From NCBI RefSeq assembly GCF_041886205.1, contig NZ_CP169029.1: a DNA stretch of 64,000 bases. One strand, given 5' to 3'. The stretch's first letter is position 1. Each line of letters opens with the position of its first letter. The DNA is from Escherichia coli. GTDB lineage: Bacteria; Pseudomonadota; Gammaproteobacteria; Enterobacterales; Enterobacteriaceae. Positions 49,064-63,588 of this stretch are shown piece after piece. The notes below the pieces were generated by a model. It was not told where the DNA came from, did not search any database, and was given only the letters and a program-made list of their open reading frames with translations. A program made the translations under genes and the position numbers.

Positions 49064-50523
49064 TGAAAAAATTACTGCGTCTTTTTTTCCCGCTCTCGCT
49101 GCGGGTACGTTTTCTGTTGGCAACGGCAGCGGTAGTACTGGTGCTTTCGCTTGCCTACGGAATGGTCGCGCTGATCGGTTATAGCGTCAGTTTCGATAAA
49201 ACTACGTTTCGGCTGTTACGTGGCGAAAGCAATCTGTTCTATACCCTTGCGAAGTGGGAAAACAATAAGTTGCATGTCGAGTTACCAGAAAATATCGACA
49301 AGCAAAGCCCCACCATGACGCTAATTTATGATGAGAACGGGCAGCTTTTATGGGCGCAACGTGACGTGCCCTGGCTGATGAAGATGATCCAGCCTGACTG
49401 GCTGAAATCGAATGGTTTTCATGAAATTGAAGCGGATGTTAACGATACCAGCCTCTTGCTGAGTGGAGATCATTCGATACAGCAACAGTTGCAGGAAGTG
49501 CGGGAAGATGACGACGACGCGGAGATGACCCACTCGGTGGCAGTAAACGTCTACCCGGCAACATCGCGGATGCCAAAATTAACCATTGTGGTGGTGGATA
49601 CCATTCCGGTGGAGCTAAAAAGTTCCTATATGGTCTGGAGCTGGTTTATCTATGTGCTCTCAGCCAATCTGCTGTTAGTGATCCCGCTGCTGTGGGTCGC
49701 CGCCTGGTGGAGTTTACGCCCCATCGAAGCCCTGGCAAAAGAAGTCCGCGAACTGGAAGAACATAACCGCGAATTGCTCAATCCAGCCACAACGCGAGAA
49801 CTGACCAGTCTGGTACGAAACCTGAACCGATTGTTAAAAAGTGAACGCGAACGTTACGACAAATACCGTACGACGCTCACCGACCTGACCCATAGTCTGA
49901 AAACGCCACTGGCGGTGCTGCAAAGTACGCTGCGTTCTCTGCGTAGTGAAAAGATGAGCGTCAGTGATGCTGAACCGGTAATGCTGGAGCAAATCAGCCG
50001 CATTTCACAGCAAATTGGCTACTACCTGCATCGTGCCAGTATGCGCGGCGGGACATTGCTTAGCCGCGAGCTGCATCCGGTCGCCCCACTGCTGGACAAT
50101 CTCACCTCGGCGCTGAACAAAGTGTATCAACGCAAAGGGGTCAATATCTCTCTCGATATTTCGCCAGAGATCAGCTTTGTCGGTGAGCAGAACGATTTTG
50201 TCGAGGTGATGGGCAATCTGCTGGATAATGCCTGTAAATATTGCCTCGAGTTTGTCGAAATTTCTGCAAGGCAAACCGACGAGCATCTCTATATTGTGGT
50301 CGAGGATGATGGACCCGGTATTCCATTAAGCAAGCGAGAGGTCATTTTCGACCGTGGTCAACGGGTTGATACTTTACGCCCTGGGCAAGGTGTAGGGCTG
50401 GCGGTAGCCCGCGAAATCACCGAGCAATATGAGGGTAAAATCGTCGCCGGAGAGAGCATGCTGGGCGGTGCGCGGATGGAGGTGATTTTTGGTCGCCAGC
50501 ATTCTGCGCCGAAAGATGAATAA
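49063..50523 (+). CDS. phoQ: Sensor histidine kinase PhoQ, 486 aa
   Basis: Translation recognised; overlaps phoP stop (ATGA). Confidence 0.97.
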
Positions 50524-50598
50524 ATATGTCCATACTTCACGCATTACGTTAAGCATCCGTTATAATCGGTTGCAGATACCAGCCTGTGGATGCTTAAC

Positions 50599-51720
50599 AT
50601 GGAATACCAACTCACTCTTAACTGGCCCGATTTTCTTGAACGTCACTGGCAGAAACGCCCGGTGGTGTTAAAACGCGGCTTTAATAATTTTATTGACCCG
50701 ATCTCTCCAGACGAGTTGGCGGGTCTGGCGATGGAAAGCGAAGTCGACAGTCGACTGGTCAGTCACCAGGATGGCAAATGGCAGGTCAGCCACGGTCCGT
50801 TCGAAAGCTACGATCATCTCGGTGAAACTAACTGGTCATTGTTAGTGCAAGCAGTAAATCACTGGCATGAGCCGACCGCCGCGCTGATGCGACCGTTCCG
50901 TGAACTACCGGACTGGCGTATTGATGATCTGATGATCTCTTTTTCTGTACCTGGCGGCGGCGTCGGCCCGCATCTCGATCAGTACGACGTGTTTATCATT
51001 CAGGGTACCGGACGTCGTCGCTGGCGAGTGGGCGAAAAGCTGCAAATGAAACAGCACTGCCCACACCCGGATCTGTTACAGGTCGATCCGTTCGAAGCCA
51101 TCATCGATGAAGAGCTGGAGCCTGGCGATATTCTTTATATTCCGCCAGGATTCCCGCATGAAGGCTACGCGCTGGAAAATGCGATGAACTATTCCGTGGG
51201 TTTTCGCGCGCCAAATACGCGGGAATTAATTAGCGGATTTGCCGATTATGTGCTGCAACGTGAACTGGGCGGCAACTACTACAGCGATCCTGATGTTCCA
51301 CCTCGCGCTCATCCTGCGGACGTTCTGCCGCAAGAGATGGATAAACTGCGTGAGATGATGCTCGAATTGATCAACCAGCCGGAACACTTTAAGCAATGGT
51401 TTGGCGAGTTTATATCCCAGTCACGTCATGAACTGGATATCGCGCCGCCAGAGCCGCCTTATCAGCCGGATGAAATCTACGATGCGCTGAAACAAGGTGA
51501 TGTGCTGGTGCGCCTTGGTGGTCTGCGCGTATTGCGCATTGGCGACGACGTGTATGCCAATGGTGAGAAGATCGATTCCCCGCACCGTCCGGCACTGGAT
51601 GCACTCGCCAGCAACATTGCGCTGACTGCGGAGAATTTTGGCGATGCGCTGGAAGATCCGTCATTCCTCGCGATGCTCGCGACGCTGGTCAATAGCGGGT
51701 ATTGGTTCTTCGAAGGGTAA
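50599..51720 (+). CDS. roxA: Ribosomal protein L16 arginine hydroxylase RoxA (YcfD; JmjC/cupin), 373 aa
   Basis: Translation recognised (MEYQLTLNWPDFLERHWQKRPVVLKRGF...). Confidence 0.9.
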   Translation: MEYQLTLNWPDFLERHWQKRPVVLKRGFNNFIDPISPDELAGLAMESEVDSRLVSHQDGKWQVSHGPFESYDHLGETNWSLLVQAVNHWHEPTAALMRPFRELPDWRIDDLMISFSVPGGGVGPHLDQYDVFIIQGTGRRRWRVGEKLQMKQHCPHPDLLQVDPFEAIIDEELEPGDILYIPPGFPHEGYALENAMNYSVGFRAPNTRELISGFADYVLQRELGGNYYSDPDVPPRAHPADVLPQEMDKLREMMLELINQPEHFKQWFGEFISQSRHELDIAPPEPPYQPDEIYDALKQGDVLVRLGGLRVLRIGDDVYANGEKIDSPHRPALDALASNIALTAENFGDALEDPSFLAMLATLVNSGYWFFEG

Positions 51721-51768
51721 GTTTGGATTTAAGCCGGATGCGGCATCACATGCCGCATCCCTTTTCGC

Positions 51769-52995
51769 TTACTTCCGTTGCGCCGTTAACTCGGCAATAC
51801 GGACGATCACCTGCACCGCTTTTTCCATACCTTCCAGAGTCACAAACTCATGCTTACCATGATAGTTGTAACCGCCAGTGAACAGGTTCGGGCACGGTAA
51901 TCCCATAAACGACAACTGCGCGCCGTCGGTACCGCCGCGGATCGGTTTCAGTTCCGGTTCAATATCGCAGTCACGCATCGCCTGCTGGGCGATATCGAGA
52001 ATATGCGGATGCTCAACCACTTTCTCGCGCATATTGTAGTAACTGTCTTCAATCACCAGTTCAATGTAGCAATCAGGATGTAACCCTTTGCCCACTTTTT
52101 TGGCGATCTCCATCATTTTACGTTTACGCGCTTCAAACTGTTTACGGTCGAAATCACGGATGATGTAGTGCATATCGGCTCGGTCAACGGTGCCTTTCAT
52201 GCTCGCCAGGTGATAGAAACCTTCATAGCCTTCTGTCATTTCCGGGCTTTCATCCGCCGGAACTTCCGCATGAATACGTGCCGCCAGCGACAGCGCATTT
52301 ACCATCACTCCTTTCGCCGTGCCCGGATGAACATTGTTACCGACAATTTTGATATTGACCGATGCGGCGTTGAAGTTTTCAAACTCCAGTTCGCCTACGC
52401 CACCACCGTCAACAGTGTAAGCCCAGCGGGCATCGAAGGCATCAACATCAAAATGTTTCGCCCCTTTGCCCACTTCTTCATCCGGGGTAAAGGCGACGCG
52501 AATATCACCATGCGGAATGTTTTTCTGTTGCAATACCGCCAGCGCGGTCATGATTTCTGCAATACCGGCTTTGTCATCGGCACCTAACAAGGTTTTACCA
52601 TCGGTGGTAATCAACGTCTGACCCAGTAGCTGATGCAGCACCGGGAACATAACCGGTGATAAAACTTCATCGCCGATACCCAGCGCAATATCGCCACCGC
52701 GATAGTTTTCAACAATTTGCGGATTAACATTTTTGCCGCTGCAATCCGGTGAGGTATCCACATGAGAAATAAAGCCAATCGCCGGGATATCGCCAGGGAC
52801 GTTAGCCGGTAACGTCGCCATCAAAGTGCCCTTCTCACTTAAGGTCACATTGATAAGCCCCATTTCTTCGAGCTGCTCTTTCAGCAGATGCAATAACTTC
52901 CATTGGCCTTCCGTGCTGGGAACCTGTCTCACCCCTGCTTTTGATTGGGTATCCAGAGACACGTAGTTCAAAAATCGCTCAAGTAGTTTATCCAT
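51769..52995 (-). CDS. pepT: Peptidase T (tripeptidase), 408 aa
   Basis: Translation recognised ([21 protein letters not shown]...). Confidence 0.95.
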
Positions 52996-53244
52996 GTAGT
53001 CACCCTCACTTTTTGTGACAACATTATTAAGAAGCAAGAAAAGACAAATATTGCGTCAGGTCACTTTTACCCCTGCAAGCGGGAATATTTATCAGCATTA
53101 CCTTAATGAATATAAAGCTAAGCCAGTAATTCACAACAAAGATTGGCGATTCAAGCGGTTTGCCGTAGAATTACCGCCCTCATTAAGAGTCACCAAGGTG
53201 GTTAACCACAAACCCCGCATCGGTAAGCCATCCGTTGCGTTTAC

Positions 53245-54381
53245 ATGGGACAGAGTAAAAAATTGAATAAACAACCGAGTTCGCTTTCACCGCTGGTGCA
53301 ATTGGCGGGAATTCGCAAATGCTTTGATGGTAAAGAGGTCATTCCCCAGCTGGATCTGACTATCAACAATGGCGAGTTCCTCACGCTGCTTGGCCCTTCT
53401 GGCTGCGGTAAAACAACCGTTCTTCGCCTGATTGCAGGTCTGGAAACTGTTGATTCCGGACGCATCATGCTGGATAACGAGGACATCACCCACGTTCCGG
53501 CGGAAAACCGCTATGTGAACACTGTTTTCCAAAGCTACGCACTTTTCCCCCACATGACCGTGTTCGAAAATGTGGCCTTTGGGTTGCGCATGCAAAAAAC
53601 CCCCGCTGCTGAAATTACGCCCCGCGTGATGGAAGCCCTGCGGATGGTGCAACTGGAAACCTTCGCTCAACGTAAACCGCATCAGCTCTCTGGTGGTCAA
53701 CAGCAACGCGTCGCCATTGCTCGCGCGGTGGTTAACAAGCCTCGTCTGTTGTTGCTGGATGAGTCGCTCTCAGCGCTGGATTACAAACTGCGTAAGCAAA
53801 TGCAGAACGAGCTGAAAGCGTTACAGCGTAAGCTTGGTATTACCTTCGTCTTTGTCACTCACGATCAGGAAGAAGCGCTCACCATGTCAGACAGGATTGT
53901 GGTGATGCGCGAGGGTCGTATTGAGCAAGATGGTACACCGCGCGAAATTTACGAAGAGCCGAAAAACCTGTTTGTTGCCGGCTTCATTGGCGAAATCAAT
54001 ATGTTTAACGCCACTGTCATCGAACGTCTAGACGAGCAGCGCGTACGCGCCAACGTTGAAGGCCGCGAATGTAATATCTACGTTAACTTCGCCGTTGAAC
54101 CGGGGCAAAAACTGCATGTTCTGCTGCGCCCGGAAGACTTACGTGTTGAAGAGATTAACGACGACAACCACGCTGAAGGGCTGATTGGTTACGTTCGTGA
54201 GCGTAACTACAAAGGCATGACGCTGGAGTCGGTTGTTGAACTGGAAAATGGCAAGATGGTGATGGTCAGCGAATTCTTCAATGAAGACGACCCTGACTTT
54301 GACCACTCTCTCGACCAAAAAATGGCCATTAATTGGGTAGAAAGCTGGGAGGTCGTACTGGCTGATGAAGAACACAAGTAA
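53245..54381 (+). CDS. potA: Spermidine/putrescine ABC transporter ATPase PotA, 378 aa
   Basis: Translation recognised; Walker [10 protein letters not shown], signature LSGGQQQR. Confidence 0.95.
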
Positions 54382-54394
54382 GTTCCAGAATGTA

Positions 54395-55222
54395 GTGATT
54401 GTCACTATTGTCGGTTGGCTTGTGTTGTTTGTCTTTCTGCCCAACCTGATGATCATTGGCACCAGCTTTTTGACCCGCGACGACGCCAGTTTCGTCAAAA
54501 TGGTCTTTACGCTGGATAACTACACGCGTCTGCTCGATCCGCTCTATTTTGAAGTGCTATTGCACTCGCTGAATATGGCGCTGATCGCCACCCTCGCCTG
54601 CCTGGTGCTGGGCTACCCGTTTGCCTGGTTTCTGGCGAAGCTGCCACACAAGGTGCGTCCGCTGCTGCTGTTTCTGCTGATTGTTCCCTTCTGGACCAAC
54701 TCACTGATTCGCATCTACGGGCTGAAAATTTTCCTCAGCACCAAAGGCTATCTCAACGAGTTTTTGCTCTGGCTGGGCGTTATCGACACACCAATCCGTA
54801 TCATGTTCACGCCCAGTGCGGTGATTATCGGTCTGGTTTACATTCTGCTGCCGTTTATGGTGATGCCGCTGTACTCCAGTATTGAAAAACTGGATAAGCC
54901 GTTGCTTGAGGCGGCGCGCGATCTCGGTGCCAGCAAGTTACAGACTTTTATCCGTATCATTATTCCACTGACGATGCCGGGAATTATTGCCGGATGTCTG
55001 CTGGTGATGCTGCCAGCGATGGGCCTGTTCTATGTATCCGACCTGATGGGCGGTGCGAAAAACCTGCTGATCGGTAACGTCATCAAGGTACAGTTCCTCA
55101 ATATTCGTGACTGGCCATTTGGTGCAGCCACCAGCATTACGCTGACTATCGTAATGGGCCTGATGTTGCTGGTTTACTGGCGCGCTTCTCGTTTGCTGAA
55201 TAAGAAGGTGGAACTGGAATGA
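54395..55222 (+). CDS. potB: Spermidine/putrescine ABC transporter permease PotB, 275 aa, GTG start
   Basis: Translation recognised; start trimmed to (M)IVTIVGWLV. Confidence 0.9.
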   Translation: MIVTIVGWLVLFVFLPNLMIIGTSFLTRDDASFVKMVFTLDNYTRLLDPLYFEVLLHSLNMALIATLACLVLGYPFAWFLAKLPHKVRPLLLFLLIVPFWTNSLIRIYGLKIFLSTKGYLNEFLLWLGVIDTPIRIMFTPSAVIIGLVYILLPFMVMPLYSSIEKLDKPLLEAARDLGASKLQTFIRIIIPLTMPGIIAGCLLVMLPAMGLFYVSDLMGGAKNLLIGNVIKVQFLNIRDWPFGAATSITLTIVMGLMLLVYWRASRLLNKKVELE

Positions 55223-56013
55223 TCGGTCGACTGCTTCGCGGCGGTTTTATGACCGCTATCTACGCGTACCTGTATATCCCAATCATTATTTTGATTGTGA
55301 ACTCCTTTAACAGCTCGCGCTTTGGCATCAACTGGCAGGGTTTTACCACCAAATGGTATAGCCTGCTGATGAACAACGACAGCCTGTTACAGGCAGCGCA
55401 GCATTCACTAACAATGGCGGTGTTTTCGGCAACATTTGCTACGCTTATCGGTTCACTGACGGCAGTTGCGCTGTACCGTTATCGCTTTCGTGGTAAGCCG
55501 TTCGTTAGCGGAATGCTGTTTGTGGTGATGATGTCACCAGATATCGTGATGGCGATTTCGCTGCTGGTACTGTTTATGCTGCTGGGAATTCAGCTTGGCT
55601 TCTGGTCGCTGCTGTTCTCTCATATCACCTTCTGCCTGCCATTTGTGGTGGTGACGGTGTATTCGCGCCTGAAAGGTTTTGACGTGCGGATGCTGGAAGC
55701 GGCGAAAGATCTCGGTGCCAGCGAATTTACCATTCTGCGAAAAATCATACTGCCACTGGCAATGCCAGCGGTGGCGGCGGGCTGGGTGTTAAGCTTTACC
55801 CTGTCGATGGACGATGTGGTAGTTTCTTCGTTCGTCACCGGACCAAGTTATGAAATTCTGCCGTTAAAAATTTATTCGATGGTCAAAGTCGGCGTATCGC
55901 CGGAAGTTAACGCGCTGGCAACCATATTACTGGTGCTGTCGCTGGTGATGGTTATTGCCAGTCAGCTTATTGCTCGTGATAAAACGAAAGGTAACACAGG
56001 GGACGTTAAATGA
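55219..56013 (+). CDS. potC: Spermidine/putrescine ABC transporter permease PotC, 264 aa
   Basis: Translation recognised. Confidence 0.95.
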   Translation: MIGRLLRGGFMTAIYAYLYIPIIILIVNSFNSSRFGINWQGFTTKWYSLLMNNDSLLQAAQHSLTMAVFSATFATLIGSLTAVALYRYRFRGKPFVSGMLFVVMMSPDIVMAISLLVLFMLLGIQLGFWSLLFSHITFCLPFVVVTVYSRLKGFDVRMLEAAKDLGASEFTILRKIILPLAMPAVAAGWVLSFTLSMDDVVVSSFVTGPSYEILPLKIYSMVKVGVSPEVNALATILLVLSLVMVIASQLIARDKTKGNTGDVK

Positions 56014-57056
56014 AAAAATGGTCACGCCACCTGCTCGCGGCGGGTGCTCTGGCACTGGGCATGAGCGCCGCTCACGCCGATGACAACAACACGCTGTATT
56101 TCTACAACTGGACCGAGTACGTGCCGCCAGGACTGCTTGAACAGTTCACCAAAGAAACCGGTATTAAGGTTATCTATTCGACTTACGAGTCGAACGAAAC
56201 CATGTACGCCAAGCTGAAAACGTACAAAGACGGTGCGTATGACCTGGTGGTTCCTTCAACCTATTACGTCGATAAAATGCGTAAAGAAGGGATGATCCAG
56301 AAGATCGACAAGTCGAAGTTAACGAACTTCAGCAATCTCGATCCAGACATGCTCAACAAGCCTTTTGACCCGAATAACGACTACTCCATTCCGTATATCT
56401 GGGGTGCGACGGCGATTGGTGTTAACGGTGATGCGGTGGATCCGAAATCTGTCACCAGCTGGGCCGATCTGTGGAAGCCAGAGTACAAAGGCAGCCTGCT
56501 GTTGACCGACGATGCCCGTGAAGTGTTCCAGATGGCGCTGCGTAAGCTGGGCTATTCCGGTAACACCACCGATCCGAAAGAGATTGAAGCTGCATATAAC
56601 GAGCTGAAAAAACTGATGCCAAACGTCGCAGCGTTTAACTCCGATAACCCGGCTAACCCGTACATGGAAGGCGAAGTTAACCTCGGCATGATCTGGAACG
56701 GTTCTGCTTTCGTTGCACGCCAAGCGGGTACGCCTATTGACGTGGTGTGGCCGAAAGAAGGCGGCATATTCTGGATGGACAGCCTGGCGATCCCGGCAAA
56801 TGCCAAAAACAAAGAAGGCGCGCTGAAATTGATCAACTTCCTGCTGCGCCCGGATGTGGCAAAACAGGTTGCTGAAACTATCGGTTATCCAACGCCAAAC
56901 CTTGCGGCGCGTAAGCTGTTAAGCCCGGAAGTGGCGAACGATAAAACGCTCTACCCGGATGCTGAAACCATTAAAAATGGTGAATGGCAGAATGACGTTG
57001 GCGCAGCCAGCAGCATTTATGAAGAGTATTATCAGAAGCTGAAAGCAGGACGTTAA
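56010..57056 (+). CDS. potD: Spermidine/putrescine-binding periplasmic protein PotD, 348 aa
   Basis: Translation recognised; signal peptide. Confidence 0.95.
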   Translation: MKKWSRHLLAAGALALGMSAAHADDNNTLYFYNWTEYVPPGLLEQFTKETGIKVIYSTYESNETMYAKLKTYKDGAYDLVVPSTYYVDKMRKEGMIQKIDKSKLTNFSNLDPDMLNKPFDPNNDYSIPYIWGATAIGVNGDAVDPKSVTSWADLWKPEYKGSLLLTDDAREVFQMALRKLGYSGNTTDPKEIEAAYNELKKLMPNVAAFNSDNPANPYMEGEVNLGMIWNGSAFVARQAGTPIDVVWPKEGGIFWMDSLAIPANAKNKEGALKLINFLLRPDVAKQVAETIGYPTPNLAARKLLSPEVANDKTLYPDAETIKNGEWQNDVGAASSIYEEYYQKLKAGR

Positions 57057-57063
57057 TTCAGCA

Positions 57064-57096
57064 AGCGGGCGGTGGTATTACCGCCCGTTTTTTATT
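57064..57096 (+). terminator. Rho-independent terminator of potABCD (CGGGCGG-loop-CCGCCCG then TTTTTTATTT)
   Basis: Read directly, 8 bp after the potD stop. Confidence 0.65.
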
Positions 57097-57170
57097 TAGC
57101 AAGGATGTGGCTAATGAGTCAGGACAGTAAAGTTTTATCCCGCTCTTTCGTCGGTATTGTGGTCCCCTTG

Positions 57171-57198
57171 TAGGCCTGATAAGCGTAGCGCATCAGGC
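57171..57198. repeat. REP (repetitive extragenic palindromic) element: TAGGCCTGATAAGCGTAGCGCATCAGGC
   Basis: Matches the E. coli REP consensus as I remember it; sits between potD and cobB. Confidence 0.55.
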
Positions 57199-57211
57199 AA
57201 TGCTTCCTGCT

Positions 57212-58033
57212 TTATAAGCCCTTCAGCAACTTTTCAACAAATTCTGGCACCACCTGACTTGCCGGGCCGTAATATTTCTCGGCAAATTCATTACCGACCT
57301 GACTTGGTTCGAGATTCAGTTCCACGGTGTGCGCGCCATGCAGTTTCGCTTCGTGAACAAACCCAGCCGCCGGATAAACATGCCCGGAAGTACCAATGGC
57401 AATGAAAATATCGGCCATCGACAACGCCATATAAATTTCATCCATGCCGAGCGGCATCTCACCAAACCATACTACGTGTGGACGTAGCGGTGCCGGGAAC
57501 TGGCAGCAATGGCATTTATCTTCTGGGGTAACGTCTCCGGTCCAGTCGAGAACCTGACCACTTTGTGAACAACGAACTTTCAGCAGTTCCCCATGCATAT
57601 GAATGACATTGGTATTACCTGCGCGTTCATGCAGGTTGTCTATATTCTGCGTCACCAGCAAAAAGCGATCGCCGAGAGCATCTTGCAGTTTAGCCAGCGC
57701 AAGATGCGCGGCGTTAGGCTGAATTTCTGGCTGCTGCAGCTGTCGACGACGGGCGTTATAAAACGCTTGCACCAGTTCAGGATCGCGATCGAAACCTTCC
57801 GGCGTTGCCACATCTTCAACCCGATGTTCTTCCCACAGGCCATCTGCGGCGCGAAAGGTACGAATACCTGATTCCGCAGAAATTCCTGCCCCTGTCAGTA
57901 CGAGTACTCTTGGTTTTTCCATTGCTTCCGGCACCACTTTATCTCTGAAAAAAATACGCTGACGCAAACGCTCGCGCAGGCGGCGTTTATTTTTACGAAA
58001 ACGACTTAACCGATGACCCCGACGCGACAGCAT
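57212..58033 (-). CDS. cobB: NAD-dependent protein deacylase (sirtuin) CobB, 273 aa here
   Basis: Translation recognised (long isoform N-terminus [18 protein letters not shown]...); see finding on C-terminus. Confidence 0.9.
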
Positions 58034-58048
58034 AGCAACCTCTGTTGT

Positions 58049-58960
58049 TTAATCGGTTAGATGTAGGAAGGCCGCACCACGCATTCCTCCCGCATCACCG
58101 TGGCGCGCGCGTTCAATGCGCGGAACACGAGCTACAGGTAAGAGATGACGAGGCAGCCTGTCCGCCAGTTGCGTTGTGATTGCCGGGAAATTCGATAAGC
58201 CACCACCAATGACGACCAGGTCAGGGTCAACAATGGTCAGGATATTTCCCAGACAAACCGCTAATAAATCCAGATAACGCTCAACGTGCGCCCTTGCCTG
58301 CTCATCGCCTTGATTATAAAGCGCAATAATTTCGGGAGCCTGCAACTGTTGATGATAATAGTGTTGATACAGCCACGCAAAACCGCGACCAGACAGATAA
58401 TTCTCAATGCAGCCATGCTGACCACAGCCGCAGCGGCGTAACGGGAAATCCAACCCCATCATGGTTAACGCATCAACCGGCAGACGCATATGGCCAAACT
58501 CGCCGGTAATGTAGCTTTTACCGGTAATCGGTTTGCCGTTGAAAATCAGCCCGCCGCCAACGCCGGTGCCGAGAATCAACCCCATCACCAGTGGATATTG
58601 AGTAAATTCATCATCCCAGGCTTCTGAAAGGGCAAAACAGTTGGCATCGTTATCAAGGCGTACATCGCGATCAAGACGTGCGCTCAGGTCGGCACGCAGC
58701 GGTTTACCGCTGGCAGCGGGGACATTGGCGGCATACAGCGTACCATCTTCTGTTTCCGGCATTCCCGGAATACCGATGCCGACAGAACCTTTACAGCCAA
58801 AACGTTGGTCAGCTTCAGCTACCAGCTCACACACTGCATCTAAAAATGCGTCATAGCTGTCACGCGGTGTCGGCACCCGCTTTTCCCACTGCAACTGCCG
58901 ACCGCTATCAAACACGCCAAGCGCAATTTTTGTTCCACCAATATCAAACCCGTAATACAT
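58049..58960 (-). CDS. nagK: N-acetyl-D-glucosamine kinase NagK, 303 aa
   Basis: Translation recognised ([17 protein letters not shown]...); start trimmed. Confidence 0.9.
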
Positions 58961-58988
58961 TGCCGCTCCTTGTTTTAATGTACTGCCT

Positions 58989-62237
<3,249 letters not shown>

Positions 62238-62387
62238 TCAATCGGCTAAATTGCCATGTTTTATCATCAATCTTGCCGCCTGATCTTAATCTGAAAAATC
62301 ATCCAATACAGACAGATACCCATTACACCTCGGGTCATAACCCACAGGATCAACCGCATGTAAATTAAAAAAGAGCATGTTGTCCTG

Positions 62388-63461
62388 ATGAAACAAAAAG
62401 AGCTATGGATTAACCAGATCAAAGGGTTATGTATTTGTCTGGTAGTAATTTATCACTCGGTCATTACCTTTTATCCGCATCTGACCACTTTTCAGCATCC
62501 GTTATCGGAAGTCCTGAGCAAATGCTGGATCTATTTCAATCTTTACCTTGCCCCCTTTCGTATGCCGGTTTTTTTCTTTATATCCGGCTATTTGATTCGC
62601 CGCTATATCGACAGCGTACCATGGGGAAATTGTCTCGATAAACGGATCTGGAACATCTTCTGGGTGTTGGCGCTTTGGGGCGTGGTGCAGTGGCTGGCGT
62701 TAAGTGCGCTGAACCAGTGGCTGGCACCTGAGCGCGATTTAAGCAATGCCTCCAATGCCGCTTATGCCGATTCCACCGGTGAGTTCCTGCACGGGATGAT
62801 CACCGCCAGCACCAGCTTGTGGTATCTGTATGCGTTAATTGTCTATTTCGTGGTATGTAAAATTTTTAGCCGTCTGGCGCTGCCACTATTCGCCTTGTTT
62901 GTACTGCTGAGTGTGGCGGTTAATTTCGTTCCCACGCCGTGGTGGGGAATGAACAGTGTGATCCGCAATTTGCCTTATTACAGCCTTGGCGCATGGTTTG
63001 GCGCAACAATAATGACCTGTGTTAAAGAGGTGCCGTTGCGCCGCCATCTGCTGATGGCTTCTTTGCTTACCGTTCTGGCGGTCGGTGCCTGGTTGTTTAC
63101 TATCTCGCTTCTGTTGTCGCTGGTATCGATTGTGGTGATCATGAAGCTATTTTATCAATACGAGCAACGTTTCGGTACGCGCTCCACCAGCCTGCTGAAT
63201 GTGATAGGCTCCAACACCATTGCTATCTACACCACCCATCGCATTCTGGTTGAAATATTCAGCTTAACTCTGCTTGCGCAAATGAACGCGGCACGCTGGT
63301 CGCCGCAAGTCGAACTGACACTCCTGCTGGTTTATCCCTTTGTCAGTTTGTTGATTTGTACTATTGCGGGCTTGCTGGTAAGAAAACTTTCACAGCGCGC
63401 ATTCAGCGATCTGTTGTTCTCCCCGCCTTCACTGCCCGCTGCCGTCAGTTACTCCCGCTAA
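62388..63461 (+). CDS. ycfT: Inner-membrane acyltransferase-family protein YcfT, 357 aa
   Basis: Translation recognised; multi-TM. Confidence 0.85.
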   Translation: MKQKELWINQIKGLCICLVVIYHSVITFYPHLTTFQHPLSEVLSKCWIYFNLYLAPFRMPVFFFISGYLIRRYIDSVPWGNCLDKRIWNIFWVLALWGVVQWLALSALNQWLAPERDLSNASNAAYADSTGEFLHGMITASTSLWYLYALIVYFVVCKIFSRLALPLFALFVLLSVAVNFVPTPWWGMNSVIRNLPYYSLGAWFGATIMTCVKEVPLRRHLLMASLLTVLAVGAWLFTISLLLSLVSIVVIMKLFYQYEQRFGTRSTSLLNVIGSNTIAIYTTHRILVEIFSLTLLAQMNAARWSPQVELTLLLVYPFVSLLICTIAGLLVRKLSQRAFSDLLFSPPSLPAAVSYSR

Positions 63462-63588
63462 ACCATCGCCCCAGCCGGGGCGATTCAATTTGCTAAACCA
63501 TGTCGATTACGGATAATGAACAGCATTGCTTATCAGAGATATGCCCCCATATGTTGAGGCATATCCTAACGAGAATCTGACAACCGTT

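Follow-up and report, generated by a model that had tools for sequence, protein, structure and literature searches.

Sirtuins are defined by an NAD+-binding motif and a catalytic histidine. The same residues are named as defining in PMC10965786, which also assigns Cys155 and Cys174 to the Zn site. According to the same source (citing Tucker and Escalante-Semerena 2010), the Salmonella enterica enzyme occurs in a long form of 273 aa (CobB-L) and a short form of 236 aa (CobB-S), both of which are active. In the K-12 strain Escherichia coli MG1655 (NC_000913.3), b1120 is a coding sequence of 840 nt, with CobB-S as a second product, and its full-length translation (NP_415638.3), which we obtained from the fetched locus L008:3521-4360, comprises 279 aa and terminates with KGLKAGSIA, as the original prediction had stated. 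Repetitive extragenic elements (REP) are imperfect palindromes of approximately 30–35 nt, with arms of the type GCC(G/T)GATG...CATC(A/C)GGC, which form hairpins. A REP located at most 15 nt from a stop codon has been reported to stall terminating ribosomes and to reduce expression (Liang, Rudd and Deutscher 2015, Mol Cell 58:431, as summarized in PMC12306157).

In the window (the whole 64,000-nt stretch of E. coli DNA analyzed here), the cobB reading frame starts with ATG at 58033 and runs on the minus strand to 57212. It encodes a product of 273 aa that ends with VEKLLKGL and is followed by TAA; the plus strand across the end of the gene (57210-57220) reads CTTTATAAGCC. The upstream neighbor on the same strand is nagK, while potD (56010-57056, plus strand) is convergent with cobB. 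The following features of the region are referred to below:

57212..58033, minus strand: cobB coding sequence (CobB-L, 273 aa plus TAA), from the list of open reading frames, NCBIfam NF001755 and Pfam SIR2
57920..57922, minus strand: intact ATG (Met38) at which the short isoform CobB-S begins; CobB-S of MG1655 is annotated from the homologous codon
57212..57214, minus strand: TAA stop immediately 3' of Leu273, the probable ancestral stop
57214..57214, minus strand: polymorphic base (minus-strand T, plus-strand A), missing from K-12-type genomes and corresponding to the single gap of the alignments
57193..57213, minus strand: 3'-UTR stretch (AAAGCAGGAAGCATTGCCTGA), untranslated in the window; its in-frame equivalent in K-12 is AAA GCG GGA AGC ATT GCC TGA (KAGSIA and stop)
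57170..57198, minus strand: REP (GCCTGATGCGCTACGCTTATCAGGCCTAC) between cobB and the ymfA remnant, a single exact copy in the window
57114..57157, plus strand: ymfA remnant comprising the first ~44 nt of the gene (ATG at 57114), from BLAST against the K-12 locus
57063..57090, plus strand: intrinsic terminator of potD, given for context

An open reading frame of 82 aa on the plus strand (57157-57405), antisense to cobB, was dismissed; it is unannotated in all fetched records (D7, OK1, M10, ST131 and NCM3722).

The region beside cobB also differs from K-12 by a deletion, which we regard as genomic context separate from the polymorphism at the end of the gene. The window lacks about 1.29 kb (about 1,291 bp), a segment that ends beside the REP and comprises ymfA and ycfZ; K-12, M10, ST131 and E. 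whittamii have both genes between potD and cobB. BLAST places the junction at 57157/57162, with window position 57157 corresponding to L002:209 of the K-12 locus and 57162 to L002:1501. An identical junction is present in D7 and O157:H7 OK1, and a query spanning it was covered over at least 80% of its length in 564 of the 5,426 complete genomes. Judged from these matches, the loss of ymfA-ycfZ looks like a derived deletion common to ~10% of genomes. K-12 carries a second REP of the Y type (ATTCCGGATGGGGCGCGAACGCCTTATCCGGCC, L002:1440-1475) downstream of the cobB-proximal one, the two forming a BIME-like pair; comparison of 57157-57170 indicates that the window retains only the cobB-proximal element, since the ymfA-ycfZ deletion took the Y-type REP with it.

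The protein encoded in the window carries all the features expected of a sirtuin. It matches the NF001755 equivalog with 597.9 bits (cut-off 318), residues 1–272 aligning to positions 1–272 of the 278 in the profile, and the Pfam SIR2 domain (PF02146) covers residues 48–221 with the complete profile (positions 1–180 of 180, E = 4e-54). The NAD+-binding motif begins at residue 48, His147 stands in the context HMHG, and the zinc cysteines Cys155, Cys174, Cys176 and Cys177 are all present. K-12 CobB shares with it the SIR2 domain, the catalytic His147, the Zn cysteines and the internal start of CobB-S, and the two proteins are identical over residues 1–273. The SIR2 domain occupies 48–221 in both forms, in agreement with the original prediction, which had placed the tail beyond the sirtuin core, and the six additional K-12 residues contribute only 1.9 bits to the NF001755 score. 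The length of that profile implies that some family members have longer tails, and it does not fix a C-terminal end for the family. As for the available structures, the solved archaeal Sir2 chains align to the query only up to residue ~272; PDB entries 6RXJ-6RXS, which represent the K-12 form, contain KAGSIA, and the chain of 1S5P comprises residues 40–274. From the complete identity to K-12 CobB over residues 1–273, together with the activity of the 273-aa Salmonella enzyme, we infer that the 273-aa protein of the window should function normally as an NAD+-dependent sirtuin deacylase. The KAGSIA tail is probably functionally neutral.

At the DNA level, the alignment of the window with K-12 contains one single-base gap, which falls in the K-12 sequence opposite the T of the window TAA (57214). 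At this point the codons are TTA-AAA-GCG-GGA-AGC-ATT-GCC-TGA in K-12 versus TTA-TAA-AGC-AGG... in the window, and the one-base difference at the end of cobB postulated in the original prediction is real. That prediction had named a K-12 protein stopping at the same position as the outcome that would speak against it; the check was run, and K-12 CobB ends six residues later. The plus strand that it gave for K-12 was right in lacking the base and wrong in the codon of Gly272, which is GGA and not GGC, so that the actual sequence is CTTTTAATCC rather than CTTTTAAGCC, a synonymous difference. The GGC codon found in the window also distinguishes it from O157:H7 and M10, both of which have GGA. The 3' part of cobB (window 57190-57300) is unusually divergent from K-12 at synonymous sites (94.6% identity over 239 nt); 28 substitutions separate the two genes, clustered in the second half, while the protein is identical. 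This clustering of synonymous divergence suggests that the haplotypes of the cobB locus are distinct and possibly recombinant.

To determine how common the two forms are, we counted exact matches to three 32-mers in 5,426 complete E. coli genomes. The prefix common to the alleles is shorter than 28 nt, and no 32-mer can seed a megablast match on the other allele. The counts were as follows:

701 genomes of 5,426 (exact 32-mer): window haplotype (GGC + T)
2,974 genomes of 5,426 (exact 32-mer): GGA + T
1,707 genomes of 5,426 (exact 32-mer): K-12 type (no T)

The three 32-mers classified 5,382 genomes and left 44 unclassified. The T allele is thus present in 3,675 of the 5,426 complete genomes (68%) versus 1,707 (31%) with the K-12 allele, a split that differs from a population frequency, the collection being rich in laboratory strains and clinical clones. 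Carriers of the K-12 allele include the K-12 and B laboratory strains and their relatives, among those listed BLR(DE3), HB101, MC4100 and an ST167 strain. The sequence TTA-TAA of the window recurs in D7, O157:H7, M10 and ST131, and also outside E. coli, in E. whittamii and Escherichia sp. MOD1-EC7003. The RefSeq annotations reflect the same division: cobB measures 822 nt in D7 (from a dog), O157:H7 OK1, M10 (from a mouse) and an ST131 strain, versus 840 nt in K-12 NCM3722. A protein search recovered two E. coli CobB clusters, one of 273 aa (3,707 member sequences) and one of 279 aa (904). The coding sequences of D7, O157:H7 OK1 and M10 labeled WP_000952736.1 (Sir2 family NAD+-dependent deacetylase, 273 aa) have translations identical to the window protein, a comparison made with these translations and not with the sequence deposited under the accession itself.

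The direction of the change follows from the outgroups. A pattern scan across species-representative genomes recovered the sequence TTATAAAG, with the T present and the stop directly after Leu273, from both E. whittamii and Escherichia sp. MOD1-EC7003. The degenerate pattern, which tolerates both alleles, matched only these two loci and not the E. coli representative; either that representative differs from the pattern or the scan misses matches, and absences from it should be treated with caution. Among the 120 best CobB cluster representatives (90% identity), the column of L273 is the C-terminal end in 110, typically as ...LLKGL, so that relative to the family the C-terminus of the window protein is complete. 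The genera of these representatives include Trabulsiella, Kosakonia, Enterobacter, Cronobacter, Franconibacter, Siccibacter, Klebsiella and Raoultella, and the KAGSIA tail occurs in only one of the 120, the K-12-type cluster (P0001). Salmonella CobB, an orthologue from another genus that we liken to the window protein by its reported length and not by its sequence, agrees with it in total length and in the 37 N-terminal residues by which the isoforms differ (PMC10965786). Since the T is present in outgroup Escherichia, the L273 end recurs across genera and the Salmonella enzyme has 273 aa, a single-base deletion towards K-12 and B is the parsimonious solution. The Escherichia outgroups are close enough to E. 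coli to exchange alleles in principle; such exchange is irrelevant to the direction of change, because the C-termini of proteins from other genera are concordant.

We regard it as highly probable that the cobB end in the window is the standard, ancestral form, encoding a complete and normally functioning deacylase, and that the K-12 tail is specific to its lineage and arose by a one-base deletion. In the K-12/B lineage, the loss of one base would have removed the T of the ancestral TAA, after which translation would run through six codons (KAGSIA) of the former 3'-UTR and stop at a TGA within the REP. K-12 CobB lacks the T of TAA, and its additional residues correspond to what in the window is the 3'-UTR and the first bases of the REP: bases 1–6 of the element are, in K-12, the last alanine codon GCC (Ala279) and the TGA stop. 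The cobB-proximal REP is an imperfect palindrome, and its predicted hairpin (-13.9 kcal/mol) starts 13 nt 3' of the window TAA. Elements of this kind are widely dispersed: a 301-nt query including the REP yielded 87,124 matching places across 5,425 genomes (median 13 per genome), and one such match (H40) covered only query bases 69–100 (window 57168-57199), i.e. the REP part. The exact subtype occurs once in the 64-kb window, and among Rfam families the REP-derived naRNA4 scored below its threshold (22.4 versus 59.5 bits). Judged from the alignment with the window, the K-12 tail was recruited recently from non-coding sequence, in keeping with its absence from all other clusters.

A less probable interpretation, which we consider doubtful, accepts that the form in the window is ancestral and holds that the polymorphism is nonetheless not neutral, the shift of the stop into the 5' arm of the REP, or the KAGSIA tail itself, altering the abundance or stability of CobB, so that K-12-type strains would have a deacylase level unlike that of wild-type strains. 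It draws on the limit of 15 nt between REP and stop reported in PMC12306157: the spacing in the window is 13 nt, within the range said to influence termination, and the K-12 stop lies within the stem. Both alleles, however, satisfy this limit, which leaves the predicted direction of any difference ambiguous, and the 273-aa Salmonella and 279-aa K-12 enzymes are both active. A search of the literature, in which Liang et al. 2015 was represented by a summary, found no evidence for regulation of cobB by the REP-stop spacing; cobB is absent from the RepRanger supplements, and no paper containing "KAGSIA" emerged from a search of full texts. There is a slight chance that the level of CobB differs between most E. 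coli, which terminate 13 nt upstream of the REP stem, and K-12, B and their relatives, which terminate within it and carry the tail, through effects on protein stability, trans-translation or the stalling of ribosomes. If this were true, the acetylome studies and the structures based on K-12 CobB would describe an atypical allele.

Much less probable is a gain of a base in the lineage of the window, creating a premature stop that shortened an ancestral 279-aa CobB by six residues. The window is indeed one base longer at this site than the K-12 reference and its product is shorter, which is how the original prediction arrived at an additional base and an early stop of CobB. The majority allele and the outgroups reverse this direction: the T is found in 3,675 of the 5,382 classified genomes, in lineages as diverse as O157:H7 and ST131 and in two Escherichia other than E. 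coli, while 110 of the 120 related enterobacterial CobB clusters share the C-terminus and KAGSIA is confined to one. It is the K-12 lineage that lacks the base and stops late, and the bias of the prediction came from taking K-12 as the reference. Single-base indels are the commonest type of assembly error, but an error of sequencing or assembly can be dismissed almost entirely as the origin of the T. The site (TTATAAAG) is not a homopolymer, the T allele is common to thousands of genomes, and positions 50000-64000 of the window (14,001 nt) match the independent complete genomes of two strains, 6EVA (human) and wlxctx60 (Asiatic black bear), with 100.0% identity, which shows that the base is no artefact.

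The cobB gene of the window is therefore an ordinary allele that has already been catalogued. Its biological import is small: CobB is intact, and an identical protein of 273 aa is encoded by the RefSeq coding sequences of three sampled strains. What the locus does provide is a clean case of reference bias, in which the K-12 sequence, the source of all solved E. coli CobB structures, has a lineage-specific tail of six residues that is absent from other Enterobacteriaceae and from approximately two thirds of the E. coli sequenced. We also suggest that a CobB of 273 aa should not be flagged as truncated, either by annotation pipelines or by readers.
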